A DNA stretch of 64,000 nucleotides from Bacteroidota bacterium (GCA_005789565.1 SXXL01000016.1:4745-68744); one strand, 5' to 3'. Positions 3,066 to 59,425 are shown, counted from the first letter of the stretch. Program-made: numbers and translations. Notes: generated by a model from the letters alone, not told the origin.

Positions 3066-4577
3066 CTATTGGATGGTCCAGGTTTGGGCTGTTCGAGTCA
3101 GCTTTTTTTCGACCGGAGTGCTTTCTTCGTTGGCTTGGTTGACGGCGGTGATCCAGTAGCGGACTGACGGTTCCTGATCGTTCAATACATCGGTCCATTT
3201 CAGGGGTTGAGAAACCGGTAAGATGGCGGCGATCTTTTTGGTCTCGAGGGTTCCCTTATAGATCACATAGTATTTCAGGCTGGCCGATTTTTTGGGGTCG
3301 GACTGGATCTCGATGGAAGCTTGGTTTTTTCCCGACGTCGTTACGGTGGCTTGCGGGATGGTCGGTTTTCCCTTGCTGAGCCAGGGAGTGGCGGGCACCA
3401 GCGCCGGTTCACGGTAATAGTTGTTGCGGAGACTATCGTTCCATCCATTATAATTTTTCTCGAACGATTTACTGCTGAAATAAACACTGCCCTGTACGTT
3501 CGGGGTCTCTCTCAATAACTTGATCTGGTTGGGTAATTCATTTGGGTTTTTCCACTTCAGGGAATTGGCTTCCCCCGCCCGATAAATACCATGACCGATG
3601 TACACATGTTTTCCATAGCTGTGCTTCGACCACCAATCGAGCAACTTTTCATACGCGATCTTACTGTGACCGATCTCCAGGTATAGTTGAGGGGTGACAT
3701 AATCGATCCATCCCTTCCTCAACCAAAGGAGAATATCGGCATAGAGGTCATCGTAGTTGGTCACCCCCGCCTGGCTATCGCTTCCCTGCGGATCTGTTGA
3801 TTGATTGCGCCAAACACTGAAGGGCGAAATGCCAAAGCGACAAGCCGGTCTTTCCTCCCGAATCACCCGATGAATGGCTACAATGATCGAGTCGCAATTG
3901 CTGCGACGCCAATCGTCCTTCGCCAGCGAGGTGCCGGACGATCGGTACCCCGCGTCATCCGGAAATTCTTTTCCGGGTATTTTGTAGGGGTAGAAATAAT
4001 CGTCCATGTGGATCGCATCCACCGCATAGCGCTTGACGATGTCGCGCACGACACTGACCACGAATGCCTGTGCTTTCTTATTTCCCGGGTCGAAGTATCG
4101 CTTATCTCCGTAGGTGAGGAACCAGTCCGGTTGTCTTTTGGTCACATGATCGGGAGCGATCGACGAGGCATTAATGTTGAATACGGCCCGATATGGATTC
4201 AGCCAGGCATGAAATTCCATGCCCCGCCGGTGCGTTTCCTCGATCATGAATTGCAGGGGATCGTAGTACGGATTCGGGGCCTCTCCTTGTTTTCCGGTCA
4301 GAAATTCGCTCCAAGGCTCCAACGAGGAGGGATAGAAGGCGTCGGCAGCGGGACGAATCTGTACCACCAGCACATTCATTCCGTTTTGTTTGTGCAGATC
4401 GGCCAGCCGAATGAAATCGGCTTTTTGTTTGGCGGGGTCGTTGTTGCGCGATAGCGGCCAGTCGATATTACTGACCGTGGCGATCCATACGCCCCGGAAT
4501 TCAGCTCGGGCTTGTCCCCGACCACACCAGCTTAACAAAAGAAAAAAAGAAAAAAGGGTAGCGTGTTTCAGTAGCAT
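3066..4577 (-). CDS. Glycoside hydrolase-like family 10 (GHL10/DUF187, YngK-like) secreted protein
   Basis: 503 aa with a signal peptide. The EFRGVWIATVSNIDWP start and TIM-barrel-like motifs (FHAWLNPYR, IHMDDYFYP) are characteristic of the family. Confidence 0.7.
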   Translation of the reverse strand: MLLKHATLFSFFLLLSWCGRGQARAEFRGVWIATVSNIDWPLSRNNDPAKQKADFIRLADLHKQNGMNVLVVQIRPAADAFYPSSLEPWSEFLTGKQGEAPNPYYDPLQFMIEETHRRGMEFHAWLNPYRAVFNINASSIAPDHVTKRQPDWFLTYGDKRYFDPGNKKAQAFVVSVVRDIVKRYAVDAIHMDDYFYPYKIPGKEFPDDAGYRSSGTSLAKDDWRRSNCDSIIVAIHRVIREERPACRFGISPFSVWRNQSTDPQGSDSQAGVTNYDDLYADILLWLRKGWIDYVTPQLYLEIGHSKIAYEKLLDWWSKHSYGKHVYIGHGIYRAGEANSLKWKNPNELPNQIKLLRETPNVQGSVYFSSKSFEKNYNGWNDSLRNNYYREPALVPATPWLSKGKPTIPQATVTTSGKNQASIEIQSDPKKSASLKYYVIYKGTLETKKIAAILPVSQPLKWTDVLNDQEPSVRYWITAVNQANEESTPVEKKLTRTAQTWTIQ

Positions 4578-4591
4578 GATGCAAAACTACG

Positions 4592-5050
4592 TCATTCTCT
4601 CTCTTGGCGGAGTTTGTCGAGCAGCTGATTCAACTGGGCCGCTTCTTTTTCGTTAAGACTTTTTAATACCCCATCCATATCCGCTTCTCTCCGATCCAAC
4701 CGCTCCAATAATTTACGTCCCTTGTCGGTGATCAGCACATCCACCAGGCGACGGTCCCGCGCACTGGTAACTTTTTTTACCAGGCCTTTGACGACCAGCC
4801 GATCCACGATCCGGCTGACATCGCTCATTTTTTCCAGCATTCGCTCCCGAATGGTCTGTGTCGAGATCGGATGCGGAAAACTTCCCCGCAGGATCCGAAG
4901 AATATTGAATTGCTGGTGCGTGATCTCCTCCTGATCGAAGATCGATTTGGTCTGATCCTTCAACCAACCAGCCGTATACAGGAGATTCACTGTCGCCTTT
5001 TGAAACTCATTGCGAAATTTCTTCTGGTGTATGTCTTTTTCTAGTGACAT
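4592..5050 (-). CDS. MarR-family transcriptional regulator
   Basis: 152 aa with a winged-HTH pattern (ITHQQFNILRIL...MSDVSRIVDRLVVKGLVKK...DRRLVDVLITDKG). Confidence 0.85.
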   Translation of the reverse strand: MSLEKDIHQKKFRNEFQKATVNLLYTAGWLKDQTKSIFDQEEITHQQFNILRILRGSFPHPISTQTIRERMLEKMSDVSRIVDRLVVKGLVKKVTSARDRRLVDVLITDKGRKLLERLDRREADMDGVLKSLNEKEAAQLNQLLDKLRQERE

Positions 5051-5076
5051 GTTTATTCATTATTACTATTCCGTGT

Positions 5077-6102
5077 TTATCCCCAGACCTTCGTCCCCTC
5101 GCTGCAATTGGCACAGATGTCGATGTTTCGGCGGCCCGACCAAAGTTTGCTACGAAAGGCCCGGTAGGCGGGGGAGCGCCAGATTTCTTGGAAGGATTGG
5201 GCTTTCAGGTCGCCCAACCGGTGCTGGGCATCCTTGTCAAAACAGCAGGGCGCTACCAGTCCGTCCCACGTGATCACCGGATCCTGCCAGAGCCTCCAGC
5301 AATGATTGGCGATCTTCCCTTTGAACCGCATGCCTTCGCCGGTTTTCTCATACCGGCTGTATTTTCCGATCGTTGGGATCAATCCGTTCGGGTCGTTTTC
5401 GTAATCATAGACCTGGGCGGTTTTCAGCCAAACCGCATCCACGCCGATTTCTTGTCCCAGATGCTGTACGTCTTCGATCTGGTGCTCGTTGGGCTTCACC
5501 ACCAGAAACTGAAAGATGATAAAGGGCGTTTTACTTTTTAATTCTTTTTTCCACCGTACGATGTTCTTGGCTCCCTCGATCACTTTTTCCAATTTGCCGC
5601 CTACCCGGTATTGTTGGTATACGTCTTGCGTGGTGCCGTCGATGGAAATGATCAGTCGGTCCAACCCGCTTTCGATCGTACGCCGCGCATTTTCATCCGT
5701 CAGGTAATGGGCATTGGTCGACGTGGCCGTGTAGATGTTTTTATCCGCCGCATACCGAACCATATTTAGAAAATCCGGATTCAGGTAGGGTTCTCCCTGA
5801 AAATAAAATACCAGATAGGTGAGGTCTTTGTAGAGCTGATCGATCGTACGACGGAAAAAATCGGTTTGGAGCATGCCGGTGGGACGGGTAAAAGCCCTCA
5901 GCCCGCTCGGACATTCCGGACAACGAAGGTTGCAGGAGGTCGTGGGCTCAATGGAAAGGGAATAAGGATTGCCCCAGTGGATCGGGCGACGGATCAACCG
6001 ACTGAACTGATAGCTCGCCCACAGCAGAGCAGCATTCCCCACGCGTCGAACCGTCAATTTAGAAATGAAATTTCGTGCATCCGATCCGTTCCATCCACTC
6101 AT
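5077..6102 (-). CDS. Radical SAM protein with a SPASM-like C-terminal Cys cluster
   Basis: 341 aa. CNLRCPECPSG is a CxxxCxxC motif. The C-terminal Cys-rich region (HCW...APCCFD...CANCSEG) is SPASM-like. Confidence 0.8.
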   Translation of the reverse strand: MSGWNGSDARNFISKLTVRRVGNAALLWASYQFSRLIRRPIHWGNPYSLSIEPTTSCNLRCPECPSGLRAFTRPTGMLQTDFFRRTIDQLYKDLTYLVFYFQGEPYLNPDFLNMVRYAADKNIYTATSTNAHYLTDENARRTIESGLDRLIISIDGTTQDVYQQYRVGGKLEKVIEGAKNIVRWKKELKSKTPFIIFQFLVVKPNEHQIEDVQHLGQEIGVDAVWLKTAQVYDYENDPNGLIPTIGKYSRYEKTGEGMRFKGKIANHCWRLWQDPVITWDGLVAPCCFDKDAQHRLGDLKAQSFQEIWRSPAYRAFRSKLWSGRRNIDICANCSEGTKVWG

Positions 6103-8574: not shown

Positions 8575-9751
8575 ATCAAATGTTGGAAGTTGGCTAAATG
8601 GTCCGCTGGCGGGTGCTGCTTTTTTGATGGCGACCTCAGCCATTGGTCCGGGTTTCTTGAACAACACGGCGGTCTACACCGCTCGCTTGGGTGCGGCTTT
8701 TGGATTTGTGATTTTGTTGTCGATGCTCATTGACATTGGGGCGCAGTGGAATATCTGGCGGATCGTGACGGATGCCGGGAAGCCGGCGCAGGATCTTGCG
8801 AATGCAAAACTCCGGGGTTCCGGGCAGGTGTTGGCTGGTATGGTTTCTTTTGGCGGATGGGTTTTTAATATTGGCAATTTGGCCGGTTGTGGATTGGGGG
8901 TAGAGATATTGACGGGATTACCCATGGTATACGGCGCGGTGTTGAGTGGGGCGATCGCCTTGTTCATTTTATACAATCGGGAGGCGGGTGTACAGATGGA
9001 TCGGTTTGTGAAGGGGTTGGGATTGATGATGATCGGGCTGACGGGGTATGTGGCGTTCACCTCGAATCCTCCCCTGAAACAGGTGGTCGTTCAAACGTTT
9101 TGGCCCGACCGGATCGATTGGGAGGCGGTGTTGGTATTGGTGGGCGGTACGGTGGGCGGATATATTTCTTTTGCGGGGGCGCAACGGTTATTGGATGCGG
9201 GGATGGTTGGAGAGGCAAACCGAAAAGCTGTGGCCCGCAGTGCGGTGCAGGGAATCTTGCTCACGAGTTTCATGCGGTTTGTTTTGTTTTTGGCGGCCTT
9301 CGGTGTGGTGTCGGGTGGTGTGGAGTTAGCGAAGGGCAATCCGGCGGCGGCCGTGTTTCAGTCGGCCGCGGGTTCGTTCGGGTATTATTTCTTTGGGGTG
9401 GTATTATGGTCGGCCGGCATCACGTCGGTGGTGGGAGCCACGTATACATCGGTTTCTTTTTGGCGAAGTTTATCGGCGGTGGTTCGTCGTCAGGAGCCAC
9501 TGGTTCGGGTTGTATTTATTTGTTTATCGTTGCTCGTTTTTGTTTGGCTGGGTAATCCGGCTCAATTGTTGTTGCTGGCGGGTGCGGTGAATGGGTTGAT
9601 CTTGCCTTTTGCATTGGCTATTTTATTGATCAGTGTAGCGGTACCCGATCCCCGCGAATCGGGGCTGGCATTTTTTTTATACGCGATGGGGTGGGTGGTG
9701 GTCCTTCTGCTGGCGGGTTTGAGTGGGATGACCCTGCGGATGCTTCATTGA
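8567..9751 (+). CDS. Nramp-like (YcsG-type) membrane transporter
   Basis: 394 aa polytopic membrane protein that overlaps the pxpA stop. The position matches the known ycsF-ycsG-kipI-kipA gene context. Confidence 0.6.
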   Translation: MHKSNVGSWLNGPLAGAAFLMATSAIGPGFLNNTAVYTARLGAAFGFVILLSMLIDIGAQWNIWRIVTDAGKPAQDLANAKLRGSGQVLAGMVSFGGWVFNIGNLAGCGLGVEILTGLPMVYGAVLSGAIALFILYNREAGVQMDRFVKGLGLMMIGLTGYVAFTSNPPLKQVVVQTFWPDRIDWEAVLVLVGGTVGGYISFAGAQRLLDAGMVGEANRKAVARSAVQGILLTSFMRFVLFLAAFGVVSGGVELAKGNPAAAVFQSAAGSFGYYFFGVVLWSAGITSVVGATYTSVSFWRSLSAVVRRQEPLVRVVFICLSLLVFVWLGNPAQLLLLAGAVNGLILPFALAILLISVAVPDPRESGLAFFLYAMGWVVVLLLAGLSGMTLRMLH

Positions 9752-45092: not shown

Positions 45093-45854
45093 TTAGTTCG
45101 TAGTGATCGCGTCCCAGAGTCCGTAGCGTAGTTCGAGGGCTTGTTGGGCGGCTTGTTCGGCTTCTTTCCATTTTTGTTCGTCTTGGCCGCAGAGTTCGGA
45201 TACCATTTCGATGGCGAGGTGGCTGTGATGGTCGCCATCGACTTCGATGTGTCGCTCGATATAATATTTGAACGTAGAAACCTTGTTGGGCATTTCCGCA
45301 TAGAGTTGTTCCAGCAATTTGTGGAACATGGAGGGGATCAGGTCTTCTCTGCCAAACGTGAAAACGGCGGCTTGGACGTGTGCCGGAGCATTTAACGCCA
45401 CCTCAAACGTGAAGCATAAAAATCGCTTAACCTGGTCCGGTATACTCGCTTCTTCAATGGCCGGGCGAATGGGTGTGCCGGATTTGATCTGATCCAGTAA
45501 TGCTTCGATACCGGCAGTATCGGCTTCCATTTGGTGCATGGCCTTCAGGTATAGTTCGAAGTGACTTATGCGTTCTCCCGCTTCATCCACATCTGATTCT
45601 TCTCCGAGTACGATCTCATTGATGAGGTAGCGAGTGGCGGGAGATCCTACCGGAACCCAGGGGATGGTTACGGAGGTAAGTGCGATTTGAAGGGATTTGA
45701 GCAGACTCATAAAGTCCCACACGGCATAAACATGTATCTGGGCGAAGTTTTGCAGACCGTTCAGGTCGTTCAATTGGGTATAGGCCGGGTGCACCAGCAA
45801 GTTGGCCCGCACCGGCTCAATGGCCTGCTTCAGTTCGATGATTCGTGGGTTCAT
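45093..45854 (-). CDS. DUF3050 domain protein (haem-oxygenase-like fold)
   Basis: 253 aa. Contains HVYAVWDFMSLLKSLQ...PWVP...INEIVLGEESD...SHFELYLKAM, which matches my recollection of the DUF3050 pattern. Confidence 0.65.
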   Translation of the reverse strand: MNPRIIELKQAIEPVRANLLVHPAYTQLNDLNGLQNFAQIHVYAVWDFMSLLKSLQIALTSVTIPWVPVGSPATRYLINEIVLGEESDVDEAGERISHFELYLKAMHQMEADTAGIEALLDQIKSGTPIRPAIEEASIPDQVKRFLCFTFEVALNAPAHVQAAVFTFGREDLIPSMFHKLLEQLYAEMPNKVSTFKYYIERHIEVDGDHHSHLAIEMVSELCGQDEQKWKEAEQAAQQALELRYGLWDAITTN

Positions 45855-46529: not shown

Positions 46530-46868
46530 ATGAATCGTACTTTTGTTTACTGGGGAGATTATTTTGAGGATTTCATGCGCAAGATTGATCCTGACGTGAG
46601 AGAAAAGGTCTTTTGGATCATGAGAGTTATTCAATCGAGCGACCGAATACCTTCGAAATATTTCAAGCATCTTTCGGGTACAGATGGACTTTTTGAAATG
46701 CGGATTGAGTGGGAAGGAAGCATTTTTAGGATATTTTGCTTTTTTGAGCCCAATTATCAAATTGTACTTTGTAATGGATTTATCAAGAAAACAAATAAAA
46801 CGCCCCAAGGTGAAATTCAAAAGGCAATTAAAATCATGAAAGAATATTATGAAGCAAAAGCAAAATAA
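46530..46868 (+). CDS. Type II toxin, RelE/ParE superfamily (phage Gp49-like / HigB-like)
   Basis: 112 aa. Contains HLSGTDGLFEMRIEWEGSIFRIFCFF...IVLCNGFIKKTNKTP, typical of the Gp49/DUF891 family. Overlaps the antitoxin gene by 20 nt. Confidence 0.8.
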   Translation: MNRTFVYWGDYFEDFMRKIDPDVREKVFWIMRVIQSSDRIPSKYFKHLSGTDGLFEMRIEWEGSIFRIFCFFEPNYQIVLCNGFIKKTNKTPQGEIQKAIKIMKEYYEAKAK

Positions 46869-47154
46869 ACTTCGTTCTTTGGAGTCTTTGATTGATAAGA
46901 CCTATGGTCCCAAGGGATCGTCTCGACGCAATCAATTTGAAATTGGATTTGAAGCATTCAAGCTCGGCTACTTGCTGGAGCAGGCACGCACCAAACGAGG
47001 CCTAACGCAAGAAGAGTTGGCTCAAAAATGCGGTACAAATAAGTCTTATATTTCACGAATTGAAAATGATGCATCCGATATCAAACTTTCAACCCTGATC
47101 AAGATCGTTACTAACGGTTTAGGTGGCCAACTCAAACTGATCATTCCTAAATAA
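46849..47154 (+). CDS. XRE-family HTH antitoxin (HigA-like)
   Basis: 101 aa. HTH is LTQEELAQKCGTNKSYISRIENDASDIKLSTLIKI. Confidence 0.8.
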   Translation: MKQKQNKLRSLESLIDKTYGPKGSSRRNQFEIGFEAFKLGYLLEQARTKRGLTQEELAQKCGTNKSYISRIENDASDIKLSTLIKIVTNGLGGQLKLIIPK

Positions 47155-48545: not shown

Positions 48546-49658
48546 TTATCGGGCCGGGGAGGCTGTCAGTACCTTAACATCTTTTCCAAATCTGCCGAGC
48601 AGGAAGGCCAGTTCGGAGTTGCGGTCGGTGATGTTCTTTTTTTCAGGTGTTTCTTCGCTCAGCCGAAGCCGCAGGCTGATCACCAGGGTTTGCTTGTCTT
48701 TGTCCTCCCGTACGATGCGCTGGCTCGGATGCAGTCGCAAGCGTTTCACATAACTCGCCGCCCATTTCTGAAAGGCGATCTCGATCTCATACAATTTTTC
48801 TTTCTCGTCGTGGATCCAAACCCCGAGTGAATCCCGCAATTTATTCGTCAAGCCCAGTTTTTGCTCCATCTCGGCGCGATCGAATGTGATGATATTTCCT
48901 TGCTCATCTTCGGAGACCATTACGTTCAGCCGATGGATCTGATCGATGCGATAACTCAGCACCTTACTCCCATTCATCGGAAAGGCATTCAGATAATAGA
49001 AGTGTTCGTAGTAACGGATATTCAGGGGGGCGACCTGTTGCATGGTCAGGTTTTCCACCTTGCTGTTGTACACATTCACGCCGGTATAATTGAACTCAAT
49101 GGCCTGCCCGAGGTGAATATGCGATAAAATCTTGATCACGCATTGGATGACCTTCGACTCAAACTCCGGGTGTTGTGCGTCGTACATCACCGGACCTGTC
49201 TGGAATATGGCAGACCGACTTTCCATCTCGGCTTCCGATATATTGAATATCTCCGGCAACTGATACAAGATCTTCTGCACGGCCGGGATGGAATCAAATC
49301 GTCTCAAGATCCCTGCCAAAAAGGGAAGCGTGAAACGCTCCTCCTCGTCCAAGTCCCCAAACTCGGGAAGCTCCGTATCCGCGGCCCAATTATATACCTT
49401 GTGCTTGAACACTACCTTAAAGAGCTTTCCTCGCGTCTTGGCCGGCAGGTCCTGCTTGCTGTGGTCGAAATCCCCCTCGCGCAACCGTTCAATACAGGCC
49501 TGCAAGGTTCGTAACCCGATCGGGTCCAGGCCCCGCTCCTCCAACCCCTCATTCACGTGCGCATGCATCTCCTGCAACGTGCCGCCCCCGGCCGATAAAA
49601 ATGCGCAGACCTGTCGGATCCGCTGCGTATCGATGTGTTTTTGATTTTTTATGGGCAT
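48546..49658 (-). CDS. WYL domain-containing transcriptional regulator (HTH-WYL-WCX architecture)
   Basis: N-terminal HTH-like segment (RIRQVCAFLSAGGGTLQEMHAHV...GLRTLQACIERLREG). Central WYL-like segment (APLNIRYYEHFYYLNAFPMNGSKVLSYRIDQIHRLNV). About 100-aa C-terminal extension. The start is either the ATG at 49658 (preferred) or the ATG at 49688, which lies inside the operator palindrome. Confidence 0.75.
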   Translation of the reverse strand: MPIKNQKHIDTQRIRQVCAFLSAGGGTLQEMHAHVNEGLEERGLDPIGLRTLQACIERLREGDFDHSKQDLPAKTRGKLFKVVFKHKVYNWAADTELPEFGDLDEEERFTLPFLAGILRRFDSIPAVQKILYQLPEIFNISEAEMESRSAIFQTGPVMYDAQHPEFESKVIQCVIKILSHIHLGQAIEFNYTGVNVYNSKVENLTMQQVAPLNIRYYEHFYYLNAFPMNGSKVLSYRIDQIHRLNVMVSEDEQGNIITFDRAEMEQKLGLTNKLRDSLGVWIHDEKEKLYEIEIAFQKWAASYVKRLRLHPSQRIVREDKDKQTLVISLRLRLSEETPEKKNITDRNSELAFLLGRFGKDVKVLTASPAR

Positions 49659-49661
49659 TCC

Positions 49662-49714
49662 CAAACATACGAAAATTCTACGCAACATAATTGCGTAGCA
49701 CCACGCTATGTTTG
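49662..49714. promoter_or_regulatory. Symmetric divergent promoter/operator: two outward-facing TATGTTTG boxes flanking an 8-5-8 inverted repeat
   Basis: CAAACATA at 49662-49669 (TATGTTTG on the minus strand), an 8-nt gap, CTACGCAA-CATAA-TTGCGTAG at 49678-49698, an 8-nt gap, and TATGTTTG at 49707-49714. TAnnTTTG is the Bacteroidota -7 consensus. Confidence 0.5.
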
Positions 49715-49739
49715 TCCTGTCAACAAAAAACCAATACGT

Positions 49740-50159
49740 ATGAAATGGTATCCGTTAGATGAATCCGAGGAAAAACCCATGGAGAATGAAATGCTCTGGA
49801 CCTCGTTGGCGCTTCAGGGGCAGGAGGTAGAGGGTCAGACCCTGGTTCATTGTAAGTATGTGTCGAAGGATAAATACAAGAACGGGGGTTGGGTGAACAT
49901 CTATAAGACCACCTTTTTGGTGAATCCGGACACGAGGGACATGTTGGCGATGGCGCAGGCCTTTCAGGTGCCGGTGAGTCCGGCCAAGCATTTCTTCCAG
50001 GAGGCTGGGCAGCTGAAGCAGTTCACCTTGCTATTTCCGCGCATACCCAAGCATTGGAAGCGGTTTCATTTGTTGGAGGTGGCGGATAAGGGGGGTGGAT
50101 TCAGGGTGTCGGACATCGCGCGCAATGACAAGGGCGTGTATCACGTTGAATTATCGTAA
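49740..50159 (+). CDS. Hypothetical protein (cassette gene 1, 139 aa)
   Basis: The ATG at 49740 lies 25 nt downstream of the plus-strand TATGTTTG box. No motif recognised. Confidence 0.5.
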   Translation: MKWYPLDESEEKPMENEMLWTSLALQGQEVEGQTLVHCKYVSKDKYKNGGWVNIYKTTFLVNPDTRDMLAMAQAFQVPVSPAKHFFQEAGQLKQFTLLFPRIPKHWKRFHLLEVADKGGGFRVSDIARNDKGVYHVELS

Positions 50160-50174
50160 ACAACAACCATCTAT

Positions 50175-50642
50175 ATGTTAAGCACATCTGAATGGCGGTC
50201 GCAGCTCGATCGTCTCTTGCTCGAACTTCCCGAGTCGTTTCGGGCAGATCTCTCCATCCAATTTGGTTATTGCAGTCCCTTGCACGGGGTCATCGATGTG
50301 GTGATCAGCCGGGGCGATCAGTGTATGGCATTGGGACGATTTCGTCCGGTTTCCGAAAATGGTCCGGGTGCGTTTGGCGATCGGTTCCGGATGGCCATGG
50401 GGTATCCGGCCGACACCTGGTATCTGTTCGATTTCGATGGGGAGCGCCTGGTGATCAACGATCTGAGCCTGACCGATCCGATGGATGAGTTTCCCGATTC
50501 AATCGAGAACGGATTCCGGCGGCTGTGCACCTTGCCGGCCGATTGGCGGGAGGAGCAGAAGACCCTGGGCGACATGAAACGATTTCTCGAAGCCATGCGC
50601 TACCTCATTGATGAGGAAGCGATCCTTAACCCTGTAAAATAA
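50175..50642 (+). CDS. Hypothetical protein (cassette gene 2, 155 aa)
   Basis: Starts 15 nt after gene 1. Only a weak SMI1/KNR4 (SUKH)-like N-terminal pattern (WRSQLDRLLLELPESFRADLSIQFGY). Confidence 0.5.
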   Translation: MLSTSEWRSQLDRLLLELPESFRADLSIQFGYCSPLHGVIDVVISRGDQCMALGRFRPVSENGPGAFGDRFRMAMGYPADTWYLFDFDGERLVINDLSLTDPMDEFPDSIENGFRRLCTLPADWREEQKTLGDMKRFLEAMRYLIDEEAILNPVK

Positions 50643-50647
50643 TACAC

Positions 50648-51847
50648 ATGAATACTATCAAGATCCTTCTCCAGGAAGTGAATTCCATCGGCTTCTGGGG
50701 ACGACTGTTCGGATGGAGACGCATCAAAAAAATGTTGGCGGAATCCTTTTCGGAATTGCAGATGTTAATCGACAACCGGGATCAGCACCAGTATGATCTC
50801 GAGCTTTGCCGACGCGAGCTGAACCAGACCCAGATGCTCTATCAAGCTTCTGCGCGCCGGGTGACCGACCTGGAGCGAGACAAGGATGTGTTTGAGGTAC
50901 AGTTGCGTGAGCTACGGGAAAAGCTTCGCGAGAAGGATAAGGATATCCTGGAACTGAAAAAGGATATCGAGTCGAAAAGCGATCAACAAAGCCAGTCGAT
51001 CCAGATGCTGCACGCGTTCAAGAATGAGGTAATGGAGGAGCGTCGTCGCGAGCGCGAGGCCAAACAGGCGGAGGAGTTGGCTAAATTGGAGAACCAGCGA
51101 GAGACTTGGAAGCGGCATGAAAACGAAACGAAGGAGCGCCTCAAGTCGGTCTGTCAGAAGCATACGATCGAATATGTCGAGGAAGTGCCGTTCAAGGGGG
51201 ACCCTGACAATGCGATCCGAATCTGCGAGGAGTTTATCTTATTGGATTCGAAGAGTCCGTTTGGCGACGACCTCAGCAACTTCCCTTCGTATTTGAAATC
51301 ACAGGCCGATAAGGCGGTGAAGTACACCAAGCAGAAGGGCGTGAAGAAGGACATCTACTTCGTGGTGCCCTCCAATACCATCGAGCACCTGGAACAGTTC
51401 GTGTATCCGCATGCCGACTATGATGTTTACATCATCGCGGCCGATGCGATCGAGCCGGTATTGCTGAGTTTAAAAAAGATCGAGGAATATGAGTTTGCAG
51501 AAGAGCTGACCCCGGATCAGCGAGCGAATATTTGTCGTGTGATCGGCCGTTTTGCACACCTTGCCAAGCGCCGGATCCAGGTCGATAACTTCTTTGCGAC
51601 GCAGAGTATTGAGCTAGCCTATACTTGCGAGAATTATTTACCGGCAGATATTATGGAACAAGTCAAGGATTATGAGCGTTCCGAGAAGCTGAATCCTCCC
51701 ATGGAGCGGCGGACCAAGAGCATTCCCATCGCTGAGATCGAAAAGGATACGAAGAAAGTGAAGCGGGAGGCGGAGGGTAGAGGCGTGTTGATCGATCCGC
51801 AGGTGCTATCGGATAACATTGGCGGGTTGCCGTTGCATCGGGAGTAA
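50648..51847 (+). CDS. Coiled-coil protein with an RmuC-like / PD-(D/E)xK nuclease-like C-terminal region (cassette gene 3, 399 aa)
   Basis: Starts 5 nt after gene 2. Residues about 35-175 are a highly charged heptad-like coiled coil. It is followed by GDPDNAIRICEEFILLDSKSPF...DIYFVVPSN, which resembles the RmuC PD...IDxK...FIPxE layout. The CDS itself is confident; the function call is not. Confidence 0.5.
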   Translation: MNTIKILLQEVNSIGFWGRLFGWRRIKKMLAESFSELQMLIDNRDQHQYDLELCRRELNQTQMLYQASARRVTDLERDKDVFEVQLRELREKLREKDKDILELKKDIESKSDQQSQSIQMLHAFKNEVMEERRREREAKQAEELAKLENQRETWKRHENETKERLKSVCQKHTIEYVEEVPFKGDPDNAIRICEEFILLDSKSPFGDDLSNFPSYLKSQADKAVKYTKQKGVKKDIYFVVPSNTIEHLEQFVYPHADYDVYIIAADAIEPVLLSLKKIEEYEFAEELTPDQRANICRVIGRFAHLAKRRIQVDNFFATQSIELAYTCENYLPADIMEQVKDYERSEKLNPPMERRTKSIPIAEIEKDTKKVKREAEGRGVLIDPQVLSDNIGGLPLHRE

Positions 51848-51855
51848 GGAGGGTG

Positions 51856-51916
51856 GACGGGTAAGTGGTAAAGGCGAATTAAAAGCCCTGAATTTACCCG
51901 TCATCTTCTTATTTTT
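51856..51916 (+). terminator. Possible weak terminator/attenuator between cassette genes 3 and 4
   Basis: GACGGGTAA-N29-TTACCCGTC is followed by the T-rich ATCTTCTTATTTTT. The large loop makes this uncertain. Confidence 0.25.
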
Positions 51917-51965
51917 AGATGGATCATCGGGCGGTAGCCGGGTGCATGAAAAAGTCACCGTTGAA

Positions 51966-52397
51966 ATGAAAAAACTTTCTTTTCTCCTCTCGTTCGTTCT
52001 ACTCAGTCTCTGCTGTTTTGCGCAGAGCCGGTATATATCGCCTACCACCAAGAAGATCGTTTATGCCCGGGACGGCGGGAAGTGTCGGTGTTGCGGCAGC
52101 TCGTTGAATCTGGAATACGATCATATCATCCCGTATTCCTGCGGGGGTCGCAGCGATCGTTCCAATATCCAGTTGCTTTGTCGTTCCTGCAACCGTAGCA
52201 AATCGAACAGTTGCTTTTGCAAGATCCACGACCGAAAAGTAGGCAGTAACTGTTGTGATGGGAAGTCTTCGAAGGTTGCCGCATCGCCTTCTGCCCGGCT
52301 CTCCACTGCCCGTCAATGTTCCGGTACTACGAAGAAGGGAGCGCGTTGCCGAAACCGAACGACCAGCATCAGCGGACGATGTTATCAACACGATTAA
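51966..52397 (+). CDS. HNH endonuclease with an N-terminal signal-peptide-like segment and a Cys-rich C-terminal tail (cassette gene 4, 143 aa)
   Basis: N-terminus is MKKLSFLLSFVLLSLCCFAQS. The HNH core is RDGGKCRCCGSSLNLEYDHIIPYSCGGRSDRSNIQLLCRSCNRSKSN. The tail is QCSGTTKKGARCRNRTTSISGRCYQHD. No in-frame ATG, GTG or TTG lies between 51966 and the HNH core. Confidence 0.8.
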   Translation: MKKLSFLLSFVLLSLCCFAQSRYISPTTKKIVYARDGGKCRCCGSSLNLEYDHIIPYSCGGRSDRSNIQLLCRSCNRSKSNSCFCKIHDRKVGSNCCDGKSSKVAASPSARLSTARQCSGTTKKGARCRNRTTSISGRCYQHD

Positions 52398-52420
52398 GAA
52401 ACCAGTAAACGGACATCCCA

Positions 52421-52648
52421 ATGAGTAATTTTTTATTTGCCATCGATGAAAAGGCGGAGGCGGTGTTGGTATCGGCTTCGCCCAAGGGAAGCACCCAAAT
52501 TAAATTCATCGAGCGCATCGCCCGGAAGCAAAATGAGGTGCTTTTTCAGGCGGTGGTGACGCTGACCTGTATGGCAAAGTCAGCCGACCTCGACGAAAAG
52601 ATCTTCAAGGCGATGGACAAAGTTTGTCAGCTGTTGTATGGTAAGTAA
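52421..52648 (+). CDS. Hypothetical small protein (cassette gene 5, 75 aa)
   Basis: The ATG lies 23 nt after the HNH gene stop. No motif recognised. Confidence 0.45.
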   Translation: MSNFLFAIDEKAEAVLVSASPKGSTQIKFIERIARKQNEVLFQAVVTLTCMAKSADLDEKIFKAMDKVCQLLYGK

Positions 52649-52676
52649 AAGTCCATAACATTGTAATTCTTTACGC

Positions 52677-53858
52677 ATGCACAAAAAAATACTCTTTTTG
52701 GGAAGCGGGGAGCTCGGGAAGGAGCTGGTGATTGCCCTGAAGCGCTTGGGTCAAACGGTGATTGCGGTCGACCATTATGCGGGGGCGCCGGCCATGCAGG
52801 TGGCGGACGGATTCGAGGTGATCGACATGCTGGATGGCCAGGCCTTGGATGCGGTGGTTTCCAAACATGAACCGGATCTGGTCGTGCCGGAGATCGAGGC
52901 CATCCGCACCGAGCGGTTTTATGCCTACGAGACGAGCGGCATACAGGTGGTGCCCAGTGCCCGGGCGGCTAATTTTACGATGAATCGGAAGCTGATCCGA
53001 GACCTGGCATCGAAGGAGTTGGGCTTGCGGACCGCCCGATATTTTTATGCGACCGACTTTACGCAATTTCAGGAAGCGGTGGAGGCCATCGGTTTTCCTT
53101 GCGTGGTAAAGCCCTTGATGTCGTCCAGCGGAAAAGGGCAGTCCGTATTGAAGGACCCTTCGTTGATGCACGACGTATGGCAGTATGCGATCGAACATTC
53201 CAGGGGTGATATCAAGGAAGTGATCATTGAGGAGTTCATCTCTTTTCATACGGAGATCACGTTGCTGACGGTGACGCAGCAGGGCGGACCGACCTTGTTT
53301 TGTCCGCCAATCGGTCATCGGCAGGAGCGGGGCGATTATCAGGAAAGCTGGCAGCCGGTGGCGATCTCGTCGCAGGACTATGATGATGCCTGTCGGATGG
53401 CTGCTCGGGTGACGGAATCGTTGACCGGAGCCGGGTTGTGGGGAGTCGAGTTCTTTCTGACGGATCGGGGCGTTTATTTTTCGGAATTGAGTCCGCGGCC
53501 CCACGACACCGGCATGGTTACCCTCGCCGGTACGCAAAACCTGAGTGAGTTCGAGTTGCATGCGCGGGCGATCTTGGGACTTCCCATTCCGGCCATCACC
53601 CTCGAGCGGGCCGGAGCCAGTGCCGTCGTGTTGGCCAGCGATACGGCCGATATGTTTCGTATTAGTGGATTGGACCTTGCGCTGCAAGAATCCCGTACCG
53701 ATCTGCGCGTTTTCGGCAAACCCTCGATACGCCCTTACCGACGAATGGCAGTGGCACTGGTACACGATGCGGTCGGTTCGGATGTGGATGCCTTACGTAA
53801 AAAGGCGATGCAGGTGGCTTCGATGGTGCGGGTAGAGCCGGTGAAGGGGGGAGGGTGA
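52677..53858 (+). CDS. purT: Formate-dependent phosphoribosylglycinamide formyltransferase (GAR transformylase 2)
   Basis: 393 aa with an ATP-grasp fold. Contains [31 protein letters not shown] and [10 protein letters not shown]. Confidence 0.92.
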
Positions 53859-53957
53859 TGTTTTGGGTGCATTTGAAATGAACTGTAAAGTAGCGAGTGG
53901 AAGCTTGATAAGATCAGTAGGTTGCCATATTAAAAGTACTTTTGTTAATTTGGCCAA

Positions 53958-54473
53958 ATGATCAGACGCGGTGATTTGAATGATGCTGTGCTTTTGCAGA
54001 CCCTTGGCAGAAAGACCTTTGCGGATACTTTTGCTAATACTTGTACCAGAGAAGACATGCGGGGTGTTTTGGAATCATTTTTTAATCCGACACAGGTTGC
54101 GTTGGAATTGGCAGATGCTACGGATAACTTCTTTTTTTATGAGGAGGACGGAATCGCGAAAGGGTATTTGCGCATACATGCAAAACGTGTTTGTCCGTTG
54201 GATTCTTTTCAAAATCGAACCTGCATGGAGCTGGTCCGATTGTATGTCTTACAAGAATACCAGGGGGCCGGTGTGGCAAACAAGCTGATGAATTTTGCCG
54301 TTGATTTTGCCCGCAATAGGGGCTTCGATGTCATCTACTTGTCGGTTTGGGAATACAACTTCCGGGCGCGAGGTTTTTACGAAAAGCACGGTTTCCGGAA
54401 TTCAGGCGTGGAGAATGATTTCCCGCTGGGATCAACGCCTCAAACGGACTACTGGTTTGTGAGGGAGTTGTAG
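53958..54473 (+). CDS. GNAT-family N-acetyltransferase
   Basis: 171 aa. Motif A is YQGAGVANKLMNFAV, with a C-terminal FYEKHGF. Confidence 0.85.
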   Translation: MIRRGDLNDAVLLQTLGRKTFADTFANTCTREDMRGVLESFFNPTQVALELADATDNFFFYEEDGIAKGYLRIHAKRVCPLDSFQNRTCMELVRLYVLQEYQGAGVANKLMNFAVDFARNRGFDVIYLSVWEYNFRARGFYEKHGFRNSGVENDFPLGSTPQTDYWFVREL

Positions 54474-54613
54474 GGTGAAATTTAGTACAGATTCGTAGTC
54501 GCTTTTAATGATTTGTAGTAGATTTATATTGAAACAAAAATAGACCCATATACCGGAAGCAATTGCTTAGGGATGGGGCAGTAGGATCCAGGAGGATGTT
54601 ATAAGCTATAAAA

Positions 54614-55003
54614 GTGAACAAAATGAAACAAGTGGTGTCAAAATTACTCCTGACGACATTCACATTACTTATGACATTGTACACCTTTGGTCAGAGAGGG
54701 TATGATTATGACGACTCTGAAGAATATGATTGGAATGAATTTAATGCTGATGATTTTCTTAAGGCGGCATTCATTTGTGCCTTGGTAATAGTTGTTGGAC
54801 TTATGATTCGAAAAAATTCTTCTAATAACTTTTTTAGAGGGGTAGGAACTACAATAATTGTTTTAGGAGGCTTGGGAGCATTCGGATTTTTAGGGGGGCC
54901 AATTTTAGGAGCAATTAAAATTATTTGGCAAGTAGTTGTTGGTGCTGCGATATTTTTCGGAATAATTTATTGGGTTTATACGGAGTTTATTGACAAAAAA
55001 TAA
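54614..55003 (+). CDS. Hypothetical membrane protein in AT-rich DNA
   Basis: 129 aa with a GTG start (an ATG lies 3 codons later). Signal/TM segment plus two further TM segments. Its stop abuts the truncated IS fragment. Confidence 0.4.
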   Translation: MNKMKQVVSKLLLTTFTLLMTLYTFGQRGYDYDDSEEYDWNEFNADDFLKAAFICALVIVVGLMIRKNSSNNFFRGVGTTIIVLGGLGAFGFLGGPILGAIKIIWQVVVGAAIFFGIIYWVYTEFIDKK

Positions 55004-55004
55004 C

Positions 55005-55400
55005 TGCTTTACCAGCGTGTTAGCCGAATCCCGAATCGTGGCTTTCGGGACATCGCCTTCAGGCAAACCTTCCAGCTTTTTTGTGAAAAGATCCTTGAGA
55101 ATCTGATTGTCGATTGCCAGGTCAGCGTGCATCTTCTTGAGCCTAGCATTCTCTTCTTCAAGGGATTTCAATTTTTTGACATCCGAGAGCTCCATGCCGC
55201 CGTACTTGGCCTTCCAGTTGTAAAATGTGGCTTCCGTAACGCCTAACTTGCGGCAAATCTCCCGGGTAGAGATACCGGCTTCTTGTTTTTTTAAGGGCGG
55301 AGACAATCTGCGCCTCCGTAAATCGGGATTTTTTCATGACAGTTTAAATTTGAGATTAATACTCAATTTTTAAACCGTCTGCTTTTTAGGGGTACTTACA
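55005..55400 (-). mobile_element. IS3-family insertion sequence remnant: one terminal inverted repeat plus a frameshifted, truncated orfA; no orfB
   Basis: The minus strand reads TGTAAGTACCCC... (IS3-type TG end at 55400), then ATG at 55337 and MKKSRFTEAQIVSALKK. A run of 7 A (55286-55292) then breaks the frame. Removing one A restores QEAGISTREICRKLGVTEATFYNWKAKYGGMELSDVKKLKSLEEENARLKK, the Transposase_8 HTH plus leucine zipper. The similarity ends near 55005. Confidence 0.7.
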
Positions 55401-55641
55401 AAATGGCTAGATCGTTAGCAGAGGGTTTTCAAAAGTGGAAGCTGTGGATGAGGCAGGCCGGCTTCTGCAAATTGGAGTAGCTCAAGTTAGAAATTCTGCT
55501 AACTTTTAAATGGCCGAGCTTTTGGGATGCTGACACTTTTGCTATAAATTATAATCTTTTAACTCTTGAATTTTTATATATTACTCTTAAATTACTTAAT
55601 GCGATCACTTCTTATAACATTAGACCTAAAATTTATTTAAA

Positions 55642-55998
55642 ATGGACAATGGATTTTTAATTCAGATTGCAAATAAATCAAATGTAATTAAACAGGCCTA
55701 TCTGTTCTCATATGAGTTACCTGAAGGTGTTGATATTCAAACATTGAATGGTTCATATGATTTCAATTCATTACATAAAACTGCAATCAATCAACCTTTT
55801 ACGGGCAATTCAATAACTTCAAACTATAGTGATATTATTCAGTTGGAGATAATAAATGATGGTGTTTGTAAGCATCTGGAACTTCTTGGTCGTTTTGAAG
55901 GAGAGATGATCAAAGTAGATGGAAATAAGAATTCAATAAAAATAAACTGCCCACCACACTCTGTTTTTACCATAAGGCTCTTTTCTCTACGTTTTTAA
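55642..55998 (+). CDS. Hypothetical protein in AT-rich DNA
   Basis: 118-aa ORF with an ATG start and no motif. Confidence 0.35.
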   Translation: MDNGFLIQIANKSNVIKQAYLFSYELPEGVDIQTLNGSYDFNSLHKTAINQPFTGNSITSNYSDIIQLEIINDGVCKHLELLGRFEGEMIKVDGNKNSIKINCPPHSVFTIRLFSLRF

Positions 55999-56152
55999 TA
56001 CTCTTGATCTAAACCTACCTCATTTTTTGGTGCAAATAAAAAAGCAGTTACGAGCAAAAACCCATAACTGCTTGAATATCAGTCCCCCCTATTGACGAAA
56101 GATGCAACTATAATACCTTGATTCAGTATGTGATTATAAGAAAATTAAAGGG

Positions 56153-56557
56153 TTAAATTCCCTTATATTTTTGAGGGGATAAAATCCAAATGGACTGAAA
56201 TATTAGGGCGCCAATGAAAGTCCATAAAATATCGTTCCAATCAAACCTTAGTTTACCTGCAAGTTGTATAAACTCCCAGCTAGCTAATCCAATGATAGAA
56301 ATCAGATTTGCTGAGAGATGTCTCTTTTCATAAAACCAAGTTCCCAAATAATTCTTTTTGATCACGTAAGGCATTAGCAGAACAAATAATGCAGGTATGC
56401 CTACTGCAGGAAAGAAATTGGGTGCAACTCCCAAGAGATATTTTACTACTGAACTATTGCCATTGTAATTTGGGCGTATATTATCTTGAATATAATTGAA
56501 TGCAAAGAAACAAATTGCGAATATTAAAAACCAATAATGCTGAGGTTTGAGTTTCAT
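56153..56557 (-). CDS. Hypothetical membrane protein (weak VanZ-like C-terminal motif)
   Basis: 134 aa with four TM-like segments. FDWNDILWTFIGALIF resembles the VanZ family. Confidence 0.4.
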   Translation of the reverse strand: MKLKPQHYWFLIFAICFFAFNYIQDNIRPNYNGNSSVVKYLLGVAPNFFPAVGIPALFVLLMPYVIKKNYLGTWFYEKRHLSANLISIIGLASWEFIQLAGKLRFDWNDILWTFIGALIFQSIWILSPQKYKGI

Positions 56558-56624
56558 TTTCTTGTAATGGATAGGTAATACTAAATCAAAAGATGCAACT
56601 AGCCTAACTCACTGATAGACAAAG

Positions 56625-56651
56625 AAAAAGGCGACATTCCAGTCGCCTTTT
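56625..56651 (-). terminator. Rho-independent terminator downstream of tRNA-Asn
   Basis: On the minus strand, AAAAGGCGAC-TGGAAT-GTCGCCTTTTT lies immediately 3' of the tRNA. Confidence 0.65.
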
Positions 56652-56657
56652 CCAATA

Positions 56658-56734
56658 TGGCTCCCCCTGTTGGACTTGAACCAACGACCCTCTGATTAAC
56701 AGTCAGATGCTCTAACCAACTGAGCTAAGGAGGA
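56658..56734 (-). tRNA. tRNA-Asn (anticodon GTT), CCA encoded
   Basis: Folded by hand as TCCTCCT-TA-GCTC-AGTTGGTTA-GAGC-A-TCTGA-CTGTTAA-TCAGA-GGGTC-GTTGG-TTCAAGT-CCAAC-AGGGGGA-G-CCA. All four stems pair. Confidence 0.9.
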
Positions 56735-56904
56735 GTATGTTTTCTTTTGGGGGGCATCGGTGAGACCAATAGCTACCCGAAAGGGGAGCAAAAATAGGGA
56801 TTCTGGGCTTTTCCGAAAAGCCCCTGAGGCAGGATTTGGTCAAAATTTTGCCCCATCCGTTAAGTCCACAGATTGAGCTAAAAATCTGTAACACCCCCTC
56901 AACC

Positions 56905-59294: not shown

Positions 59295-59351
59295 AAGGGA
59301 GCAAAACTATCGGCTTAGCAGTTAAGGAAAGGTTACGATTTTGAATATAAG

Positions 59352-59425
59352 TGGACCCTGCAGGGCTTGAACCTGCGACCCACAGATTATGAGTCTGTCG
59401 CTCTAACCAACTGAGCTAAGGGTCC
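59352..59425 (-). tRNA. tRNA with CAT anticodon (elongator Met or lysidine-modified Ile2), CCA not encoded
   Basis: Folded by hand as GGACCCT-TA-GCTC-AGTTGGTTA-GAGC-G-ACAGA-CTCATAA-TCTGT-GGGTC-GCAGG-TTCAAGC-CCTGC-AGGGTCC-A. The G1:C72 pair and the lack of a GGG/CCC anticodon stem argue against an initiator. Confidence 0.85.

Follow-up and report, generated by a model that had tools for sequence, protein, structure and literature searches.

A WYL-linked gene module with a remote RmuC-like nuclease in Bacteroidota, a possible analogue of Shield

The window analysed here is a 64,000-nucleotide (nt) stretch of a Bacteroidota contig (GCA_005789565.1, SXXL01000016.1:4745-68744), which comes from a freshwater metagenome, measures 517 kb and is Chitinophagaceae-like. 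In it a gene for a WYL-domain transcription factor stands back to back with three genes of the opposite strand, g1, g2 and g3. We found that these four genes make up a functional unit in which the WYL gene and g3 are the constant parts, while the genes between or beside them vary. Our strongest findings are the coupling of the WYL gene to g3, a conserved operator between the two, and a remote link between the g3 protein and the nuclease family RmuC. The resulting picture resembles that of Shield, a system of Pseudomonas in which an RmuC-domain nuclease, ShdA, is combined with variable partners, ShdB-E, and is often preceded by a BrxR-type WYL regulator (PMC10270631). A housekeeping-type RmuC nuclease would, in some lineages, have been co-opted into a regulated module. 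We put at about one half the probability that the unit described here is an inducible Shield-like nuclease module, a Bacteroidota analogue of Shield that would act in defence against phages or other invading DNA.

Constant and variable parts of the module

The WYL gene lies on the minus strand, where the maximal reading of its open reading frame (ORF) covers 48546-49688 and the conserved start is at 49658. On the plus strand follow g1 (49740-50159, 139 amino acids, aa), g2 (50175-50642, 155 aa) and g3 (50648-51847, 399 aa), and behind them a gene for an HNH nuclease and a small gene, g5; the spacings between these five genes are 15, 5, 118 and 23 nt. An initial annotation of the window had described the six ORFs and the gaps at the same positions, and had taken all five plus-strand genes for a single WYL-controlled cassette. 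The positions stand, and all six genes are conserved elsewhere (g5 with a single homologue among the loci fetched for comparison). The functional unit, made of the WYL gene, g1, g2 and g3, is smaller than five genes.

Our locus set comprises 122 fetched loci (L numbers below), 80 of which are genome loci found with a g3 profile. An independent set came from a metagenome search with a WYL alignment, and its informative members are the 16 loci with enough upstream DNA. Among the 80 genome loci, the WYL gene, g1, g2 and g3 are co-conserved in L001-L006, so that the co-occurrence of g1-g3 with a WYL gene, which the cassette idea implied, is indeed seen in related genomes. The WYL gene directly abuts g3, with neither g1 nor g2, in L062 and L066. 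When the loci are anchored on the regulator, g3 is found on the divergent side of the WYL gene in 15 of the 16 informative loci, which bears out the earlier claim of a nuclease operon linked to a divergent WYL regulator. This WYL-anchored pairing holds down to 49-54% identity in the WYL protein and 41-48% in g3. The exception is L106, where the most divergent WYL homologue (45%; 4137-6083) faces unrelated genes of 240 and 134 aa, with no g3 and without the palindrome core described below. The WYL family is thus not strictly tied to g3.

The genes that accompany this pair differ from locus to locus. There are none in L096-098. Only g2 is present in L004 and L122 and only g1 in L090, and the window has both. 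L066 and L104 carry a downstream AAA+ ATPase of ~580 aa (weakly IetA-like, 2e-11), to which L104 adds a 109-aa gene. A 137-aa gene together with a 109-aa gene is found in L101 and L103, and the largest set, in L099, consists of a 137-aa gene, an AAA+ ATPase (Pfam AAA 6e-26, PADLOC IetA 5e-23), g1 and g2. Where g2 occurs, in 13 loci, it is always the gene immediately upstream of g3. Of nine g1 genes placed relative to g3, seven are at position -2 and the remaining two at -1 and +3; g1 is missing from several WYL-g3 loci. In L004, where the WYL-g2-g3 operon has no g1, a g1 paralogue (45% identical, of the subtype to which the g1 of L121 belongs) is found at 9100-9537, ~330 nt downstream of an HNH-g5 pair, which may point to a rearrangement or to a connection of g1 with this pair.

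The g3 nuclease domain occurs in at least two allele classes, with ~75% and ~49% identity to the window, and the class of a locus does not follow from how similar its neighbouring WYL, g1 and g2 genes are to those of the window. Compared with the window, L006, L089, L091 and L109 are 64-83% identical in WYL, g1 and g2 and 48-50% identical in the g3 nuclease domain. In L099 and L121, on the other hand, the g3 domain is 71-73% identical, and the WYL protein is 50% identical in the former and unrelated in the latter. This suggests recombination within the module. Flanking genes also differ among close relatives of the module, and modularity of this sort is typical of defence systems.

The regulator and its control region

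An alignment of the intergenic DNA of six related loci places the conserved start of the WYL protein at the ATG at 49658 (MPIKNQ...). Because this is the start conserved among orthologues, the regulator has 370 aa (48546-49658, minus strand; the ORF is extendable to 49688) and the divergent intergenic region measures 81 nt, in line with the "about 80 nt" of the initial annotation. The WYL domain it had reported in this ORF is recovered by the PADLOC WYL model, which matches residues 179-375 with an E-value (E) of 1.3e-12 (the PADLOC comparisons used the 2023 library). The Pfam WYL model (PF13280) gives 0.005 in the window protein, under its curated cut-off, and is matched by seven of seven aligned family members, at best with 2.4e-7. 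Neither the protein nor the aligned family members match a Pfam helix-turn-helix (HTH) model; conservation is high at the N-terminus, where a pattern of the RTLQxCIExLR type is found. The Pfam WCX model finds no match in this WYL family and does match the unrelated WYL protein of L121 (5.6e-8). A WYL profile run against the PDB sequences returned nothing meaningful, and thus no sequence-detectable relative.

The -7 promoter element of Bacteroidetes, TAnnTTTG, is present once in each direction between the WYL gene and g1, both times as TATGTTTG. One copy, at 49662-49669 on the minus strand, is placed 3 nt before the ATG of the WYL gene. The other, at 49707-49714 on the plus strand, precedes the g1-g2-g3 operon and is conserved in orthologous loci; it is the sole TAnnTTTG on the plus strand between 46546 and 53936, and the motif shows no enrichment over the window as a whole. 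Judging from the known consensus, both boxes would function as promoters, and given the distance of 3 nt the WYL transcript would be leaderless or have a very short leader. Between the boxes lies the candidate WYL operator, a perfect palindrome of 21 bp, CTACGCAA-CATAA-TTGCGTAG (49678-49698), whose centre is 19 nt from each of them. In the alignment of the six related loci the palindrome and both -7 boxes are conserved.

Taken in the window alone, the palindrome is statistically not significant, and it has no second copy in the 64 kb. Its weight comes from the conservation of its core across WYL loci and not from the statistics of the window. Of the 122 fetched loci, 23 contain the core CGCAA-N5-TTGCG, among them 22 WYL loci; by our estimate ~1 match would be expected by chance across the fetched DNA. 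Wherever the spacing was checked, a copy lies ~20-60 nt upstream of the WYL start. A sigma-70 promoter scan was uninformative for Bacteroidetes, and the palindrome itself was listed as a minus-strand terminator-like hairpin.

Since the palindrome is midway between the two promoters, a single bound dimer could control both. It is centred at ~-33 of each promoter, and no clear -33 TTTG element was seen at either. Such a geometry fits a repressor that occludes both promoters, as BrxR (of BREX) and CapW (of CBASS) do, and fits equally well an activator in the style of DriD and PafBC, which replace -35 recognition (PMC13004042, PMC11804915). By their logic, the closest regulators would be found in either of these two groups. 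With BrxR and CapW the regulator shares its divergent or upstream placement, an inverted-repeat operator that overlaps the promoter, and a likely autoregulation; it differs from them in that the sequence relation is confined to the WYL domain and the protein is ~70 aa longer. DriD, PafBC and SiwR are WYL activators of SOS-independent DNA-damage responses (PMC9186387, PMC11804915, PMC10693628). The likeness to them lies in the WYL factor, in a site at the position of the -35/-33 element and in the control of DNA-metabolism genes, and with SiwR also in the control of genes adjacent to the regulator itself. Yet DriD and PafBC serve regulons of many promoters, whereas here we find a single site in 64 kb. 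We lean towards repression over activation, because repression has the precedents of BrxR and of Shield, where in Shield II the upstream BrxR-type WYL protein represses the system (PMC10270631).

The g3 nuclease and its partners

The g3 protein starts with an FWGRLFGW motif, followed by a coiled coil (residues 23-171), a nuclease domain (~172-308) and a helical C-terminal region. Its homologues form more than 1,600 clusters at 90% identity, although part of the full-length matches may be attributable to the coiled coil. In these homologues the N-terminal half is variable in length and the C-terminal 250 residues are very conserved. Three residues, D187, D200 and K202, are invariant in 62 homologues, within the pattern FKGDPDN...EY-VFDAKSP. 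The AlphaFold model of g3 (predicted local distance difference test score, pLDDT, 79) shows a single helix over residues 23-171, then a core of the order strand-strand-strand-helix-strand, then a helical region. According to this model, the alpha/beta core is that of a PD-(D/E)xK nuclease. The best Foldseek matches in the PDB are almost all PD-(D/E)xK proteins (McrC, Nt.BspD6I, XisH, Hjc, Bax1, FokI), and the best ones among viral models are VRR-NUC, DUF559 and restriction endonucleases, in both cases with E > 0.001.

RmuC (PF02646; YigN in E. coli) is a recombination-limiting protein of the PD-(D/E)xK class. The initial annotation had read g3 as RmuC-like or PD-(D/E)xK, and this reading is supported by comparison of profiles with profiles, not by the Pfam model of RmuC. 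Indeed, no RmuC family hidden Markov model (HMM) of Pfam or NCBIfam matches g3 at E <= 1; RmuC is not matched in 10 distant members of the g3 family either, which are without any Pfam domain in the C-terminal part. A profile of the C-terminal domain reaches only 366 clusters (50% identity) among 1.84 billion representatives, with no HMMER bridge to RmuC, and by HMMER standards g3 therefore belongs to a separate, unnamed family. The link appears when alignments are compared. With 125 diverse sequences of the g3 family set against ten diverse RmuC proteins, taken from plasmid records by tblastn, hhalign gives 94.9% and P = 4.3e-8 over 145 columns. The aligned span runs from residues 164-308 of g3 to 209-395 of E. 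coli RmuC and includes the PD and D-x-K motifs as well as the helices that follow; D187, D200 and K202 coincide with the PD and D-A-K motifs of the RmuC proteins. The controls, which consisted of the reversed RmuC alignment and 10 column-shuffled ones, gave P >= 0.2. From this comparison with RmuC and its scrambled versions we count g3 among the remote members of that superfamily, outside PF02646 as now defined.

Other routes to the same family were less productive. Aligning g3 with the single E. coli RmuC was uninformative (0.3%), and a shallow g3 alignment against the ten RmuC proteins reached only 2-50%; the comparison became convincing only with diverse g3 representatives. A search for homologues of E. 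coli RmuC returned proteins all at least 84% identical, useless for a profile. The family matches of g3 in Pfam, NCBIfam and PHROGs were coiled-coil noise only, and its full-length profile found only coiled-coil proteins among the PDB sequences.

In architecture g3 resembles RmuC in having a coiled coil and then a nuclease domain, to which the 145 matched columns belong, and in its location, on the chromosome and often as a lone gene in a housekeeping context. It differs in having its own FWGRLFGW motif and its own conserved C-terminal helical region, with KRRIQVD and NPPxE motifs. Moreover, E. coli RmuC has an N-terminal transmembrane helix, whereas residues 1-30 of g3 (MNTIKILLQEVNSIGFWGRLFGWRRIKKML), as read from the sequence, hold no hydrophobic stretch of that length, and g3 thus has no membrane anchor. 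Homologues of g3, 36-42% identical to the Bacteroidota protein, were also found on contigs binned as Nanoarchaeota, Nanohalarchaeota and Methanosarcinales (L071, L076, L077, L080). These are probably mis-binned bacterial contigs.

The first description of g1 and g2 as free of motifs agrees with our searches, in which no family of Pfam, NCBIfam, PADLOC or PHROGs matched either protein and profiles of both found nothing meaningful among the PDB sequences. That the two might be paralogues of each other was ruled out (hhalign 0.2%). The 14 homologues of g1 share conserved motifs and come from a narrow clade. For g2 we found only 44 homologue clusters, all at least 52% identical. The AlphaFold model of g2 (pLDDT 87, predicted template modelling score 0.78) has as its top Foldseek matches in the PDB the BpuSI nuclease domain, an HsdR fragment, TT1808 and Hjc. 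These matches are weak (E 0.016-0.09), and the conserved residues of g2 form no D...(D/E)xK triad. From the model, we predict that g2 is a partner of g3 whose nuclease fold has degenerated. The ShdB partner of Shield II dampens ShdA (PMC10270631), and it is tempting to speculate that g2 might dampen g3 in the same way.

Defence, DNA damage and the extent of the module

The closest named system is Shield and the closest effector family is RmuC. ShdA, too, is a coiled-coil RmuC-like nuclease (PMC10270631, PMC11090510), and the two systems have in common a WYL regulator immediately upstream, a nuclease that is the constant core, partner genes that vary and define subtypes, and the existence of orphan forms with the nuclease only. 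They also differ in several ways. ShdA has an N-terminal transmembrane helix, whereas g3 has none and is missed by the Pfam RmuC model. The partners are always downstream of ShdA and here mostly upstream of g3. The g1 and g2 proteins match no PADLOC model and have no recognisable relatives, and the WYL protein belongs to a divergent family of 370 aa. Finally, Shield has been reported only from Pseudomonas (PMC10270631), while the host here is a member of the Bacteroidota and the module is known from its genes alone. The initial annotation had stated that the gene composition matches no known named anti-phage system. This holds for PADLOC, which returns no system match, but the statement overlooked Shield as a close functional analogue. 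No PADLOC match is named Shield, and it is uncertain whether the 2023 library includes a Shield model. Our literature search found no RmuC-based defence system other than Shield.

As a working scheme, we propose that a dimeric WYL factor would bind the palindrome CTACGCAA-N5-TTGCGTAG, and that one dimer at ~-33 of the back-to-back promoters would serve the promoter of the WYL gene as well as that of the g1-g2-g3 operon. Expression would be turned on once the WYL domain senses a nucleic-acid signal. The g3 protein, a coiled-coil effector with a divergent PD-(D/E)xK domain of the RmuC superfamily, would then cut DNA. Its lineage-specific accessory subunits g1 and g2 would serve in sensing the trigger or in restraining g3, the fold of g2 being apparently that of an inactivated nuclease-like protein.

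Several relatives of the module have known defence genes nearby. In L089 a retron-type reverse transcriptase (1.9e-138) and a Mokosh-like protein adjoin the WYL gene, and in L121 the DISARM genes DrmA (2.6e-191) and DrmB (4e-62) are ~2-3 kb downstream of g3. At 2893-7689 of L063, from a Chryseolinea metagenome-assembled genome, a gap of 95 nt separates a complete DUF4297-HerA pair (HerA 8e-296) from the long g3 homologue (575 aa) downstream of it on the same strand. Loci with g3 only include single matches to Old and to PDC-S27. Both groups, WYL-linked and g3-only, thus contain some strong defence matches, and the comparison fails to separate them.

Other observations weigh against a defence role. 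The apparent enrichment in defence neighbours was judged within the fetched loci, part of the matches counted as "defence" are generic (kinase, UvrD-like helicase, AAA proteins), and the neighbours of the module in L122 are purely metabolic. In 14-17 loci of Cyclobacteriaceae/Cytophagales, g3 occurs without WYL between ornithine-aminotransferase-like and GroES-like genes, a fixed synteny that gives it the appearance of a housekeeping gene. Searches of 72,556 plasmids, 50,697 phage records and 2.9 million viral contigs turned up no relative of g3. The G+C content is flat (0.51-0.53) over 47.5-54 kb, with no island signature at the module. None of g1, g2 and g3 matches a PADLOC model, and the E-values of the fold searches for g3 and g2 never fall to 0.001 or below.

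Some of these observations are what one would expect of a DNA-damage or recombination module, the alternative that survives best. In such a module g3 would be the RmuC-type housekeeping nuclease of its lineage, controlled in this clade by a WYL regulator that works independently of SOS, responds to single-stranded DNA (the signal of DriD and PafBC) and induces g1-g3 after genotoxic stress. We regard this as possible, with odds clearly short of even. It would account for the remote homology of g3 to RmuC, for the conserved housekeeping synteny of the g3-only orthologues, for the failure to find g3 relatives in the plasmid, phage and viral-contig collections searched, and for the absence of a compositional island in the window. 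An operator at -33 without an obvious TTTG is the geometry of the activators DriD and PafBC (PMC13004042, PMC11804915), and SiwR, which governs adjacent genes under genotoxic stress, is a precedent for the arrangement (PMC10693628). Yet variable accessory sets, mosaic g3 alleles and a shifting context are unusual for a core repair gene, and in several loci known defence systems lie within a few kb. Besides, the single palindrome in 64 kb gives no sign of a wider regulon in the window. On balance we slightly favour defence over a role in DNA damage.

The initial annotation went further than the unit defined here and joined to it the two following genes, that of the HNH protein (51966-52397, plus strand, 143 aa) and g5 (52421-52648, plus strand, 75 aa). 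The former does encode an HNH nuclease, as had been stated (Pfam HNH, PF01844, 2.3e-12; HNH_5, 1.5e-8; PHROG HNH families down to 8e-14), even though the gene caller of the source contig missed the gene altogether. The HMM searches that had been suggested for the cassette ended unevenly: the HNH model was matched, the Pfam WYL model gave the weak score noted above, and the Pfam RmuC model gave none. The g5 protein belongs to no family in Pfam, NCBIfam, PADLOC or PHROGs. Its sole homologue among the fetched loci is beside the HNH orthologue in L004/L087 (L087 is apparently the same as L004), and in both distinct loci the HNH gene is followed by the same small protein of 75-79 aa (8027-8765 in L004). 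The HNH protein begins with a segment like a signal peptide or the N-terminus of a lipoprotein, MKKLSFLLSFVLLSLCCFAQS, which in the L004 orthologue reads MKKLVLFLSVLLLSLSCFTQS. From these N-termini we infer that the enzyme is exported, and action on cytoplasmic DNA would then be unlikely. For such an exported nuclease and its small partner, a toxin-immunity pair comes to mind.

That HNH and g5 are integral, co-transcribed and WYL-controlled parts of a five-gene system seems to us improbable. The five genes do share a strand, and the gap between g3 and the HNH gene in the window contains neither a terminator-like hairpin nor a TAnnTTTG motif, so read-through transcription is possible. The same promoter logic, however, would put purT in the operon as well, and spacing alone therefore proves little. 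The purT gene (52677-53858) starts 28 nt after g5; the plus strand has no TAnnTTTG over 49714-53937, the next copy being at 53937-53944, and purT may thus rely on read-through or on a non-consensus promoter. The pair HNH-g5 is found again downstream of g3 in L004/L087, and an unrelated HNH gene is downstream of g3 in L089. But L004/L087 is the only other place with HNH and g5 among the module-bearing fetched loci, and in L004 a GyrI-like gene on the opposite strand splits g3 from the HNH gene. The closely related L122, whose g3 is as near to the window as that of L004, passes from g3 straight to a lipase gene with no HNH or g5, and both are also missing from L120 and L121. Nor does the export-type N-terminus, which is kept in the orthologue, suit a module that acts on DNA inside the cell. 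The HNH gene is probably a neighbour and not part of the module.

Even less credible is that WYL, g1, g2 and g3 form no functional unit and are adjacent through inherited clade synteny with no regulatory meaning, which would suit the confinement of g1 and g2 to a narrow clade but not a WYL-g3 pairing that persists to 43-54% identity in WYL and 41-48% in g3, with differing in-between genes and flanks, nor an operator kept at a fixed position.

The wider surroundings of the module in the window hold a few further elements. The HigBA-like pair that had been noticed 1.4 kb upstream, a neighbour that speaks for defence, is present at 46530-47154, as a Pfam Gp49/HigB-type toxin and an XRE-type HTH antitoxin, in a patch of low G+C content (0.41-0.44). 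A HamA_HO-like gene (PF11251) accompanies the module at a distance of a few kb in the window (45093-45854) and again in L120 (2886-3644); no other flanking gene is common to the window and this 74%-identical relative. On the other side, the stretch 54000-56800 is low in G+C (0.32-0.41) and contains a remnant of an IS3-type OrfA (54905-55337, minus strand); it ends near a tRNA-Asn gene (56658-56734, minus strand) and looks like a small integrated islet beside a tRNA. A tRNA-Met gene is found at 59351-59425.

More tentatively than the defence role itself, we suggest that g3 and its WYL regulator represent a new modular family of inducible nuclease defence across Bacteroidota. The swappable accessory sets (g1 and g2; the 137-aa and 109-aa genes; the AAA+ ATPases) would be its subtypes, and its core would be a soluble coiled-coil nuclease, remotely related to RmuC and gated by the dedicated regulator via a fixed operator, in what would be a second co-option into immunity, apparently separate from that of Shield. 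A stand-alone ancestor would be represented in Cyclobacteriaceae.

Bacteroidota are poorly covered by the current catalogues of defence systems. If the module does defend against phages, a second phylum would be seen to use RmuC-type nucleases for immunity, here in a soluble form without membrane anchor, with implications for the way in which Shield-type systems detect infection. The g3 family, for its part, would receive both a function and a name. If the module responds to DNA damage instead, it would provide a first candidate, within Chitinophagaceae, for an SOS-independent response under WYL control. Either way, a 21-bp operator placed symmetrically between two -7 boxes makes a clean test system for the action of a WYL factor on Bacteroidetes promoters.

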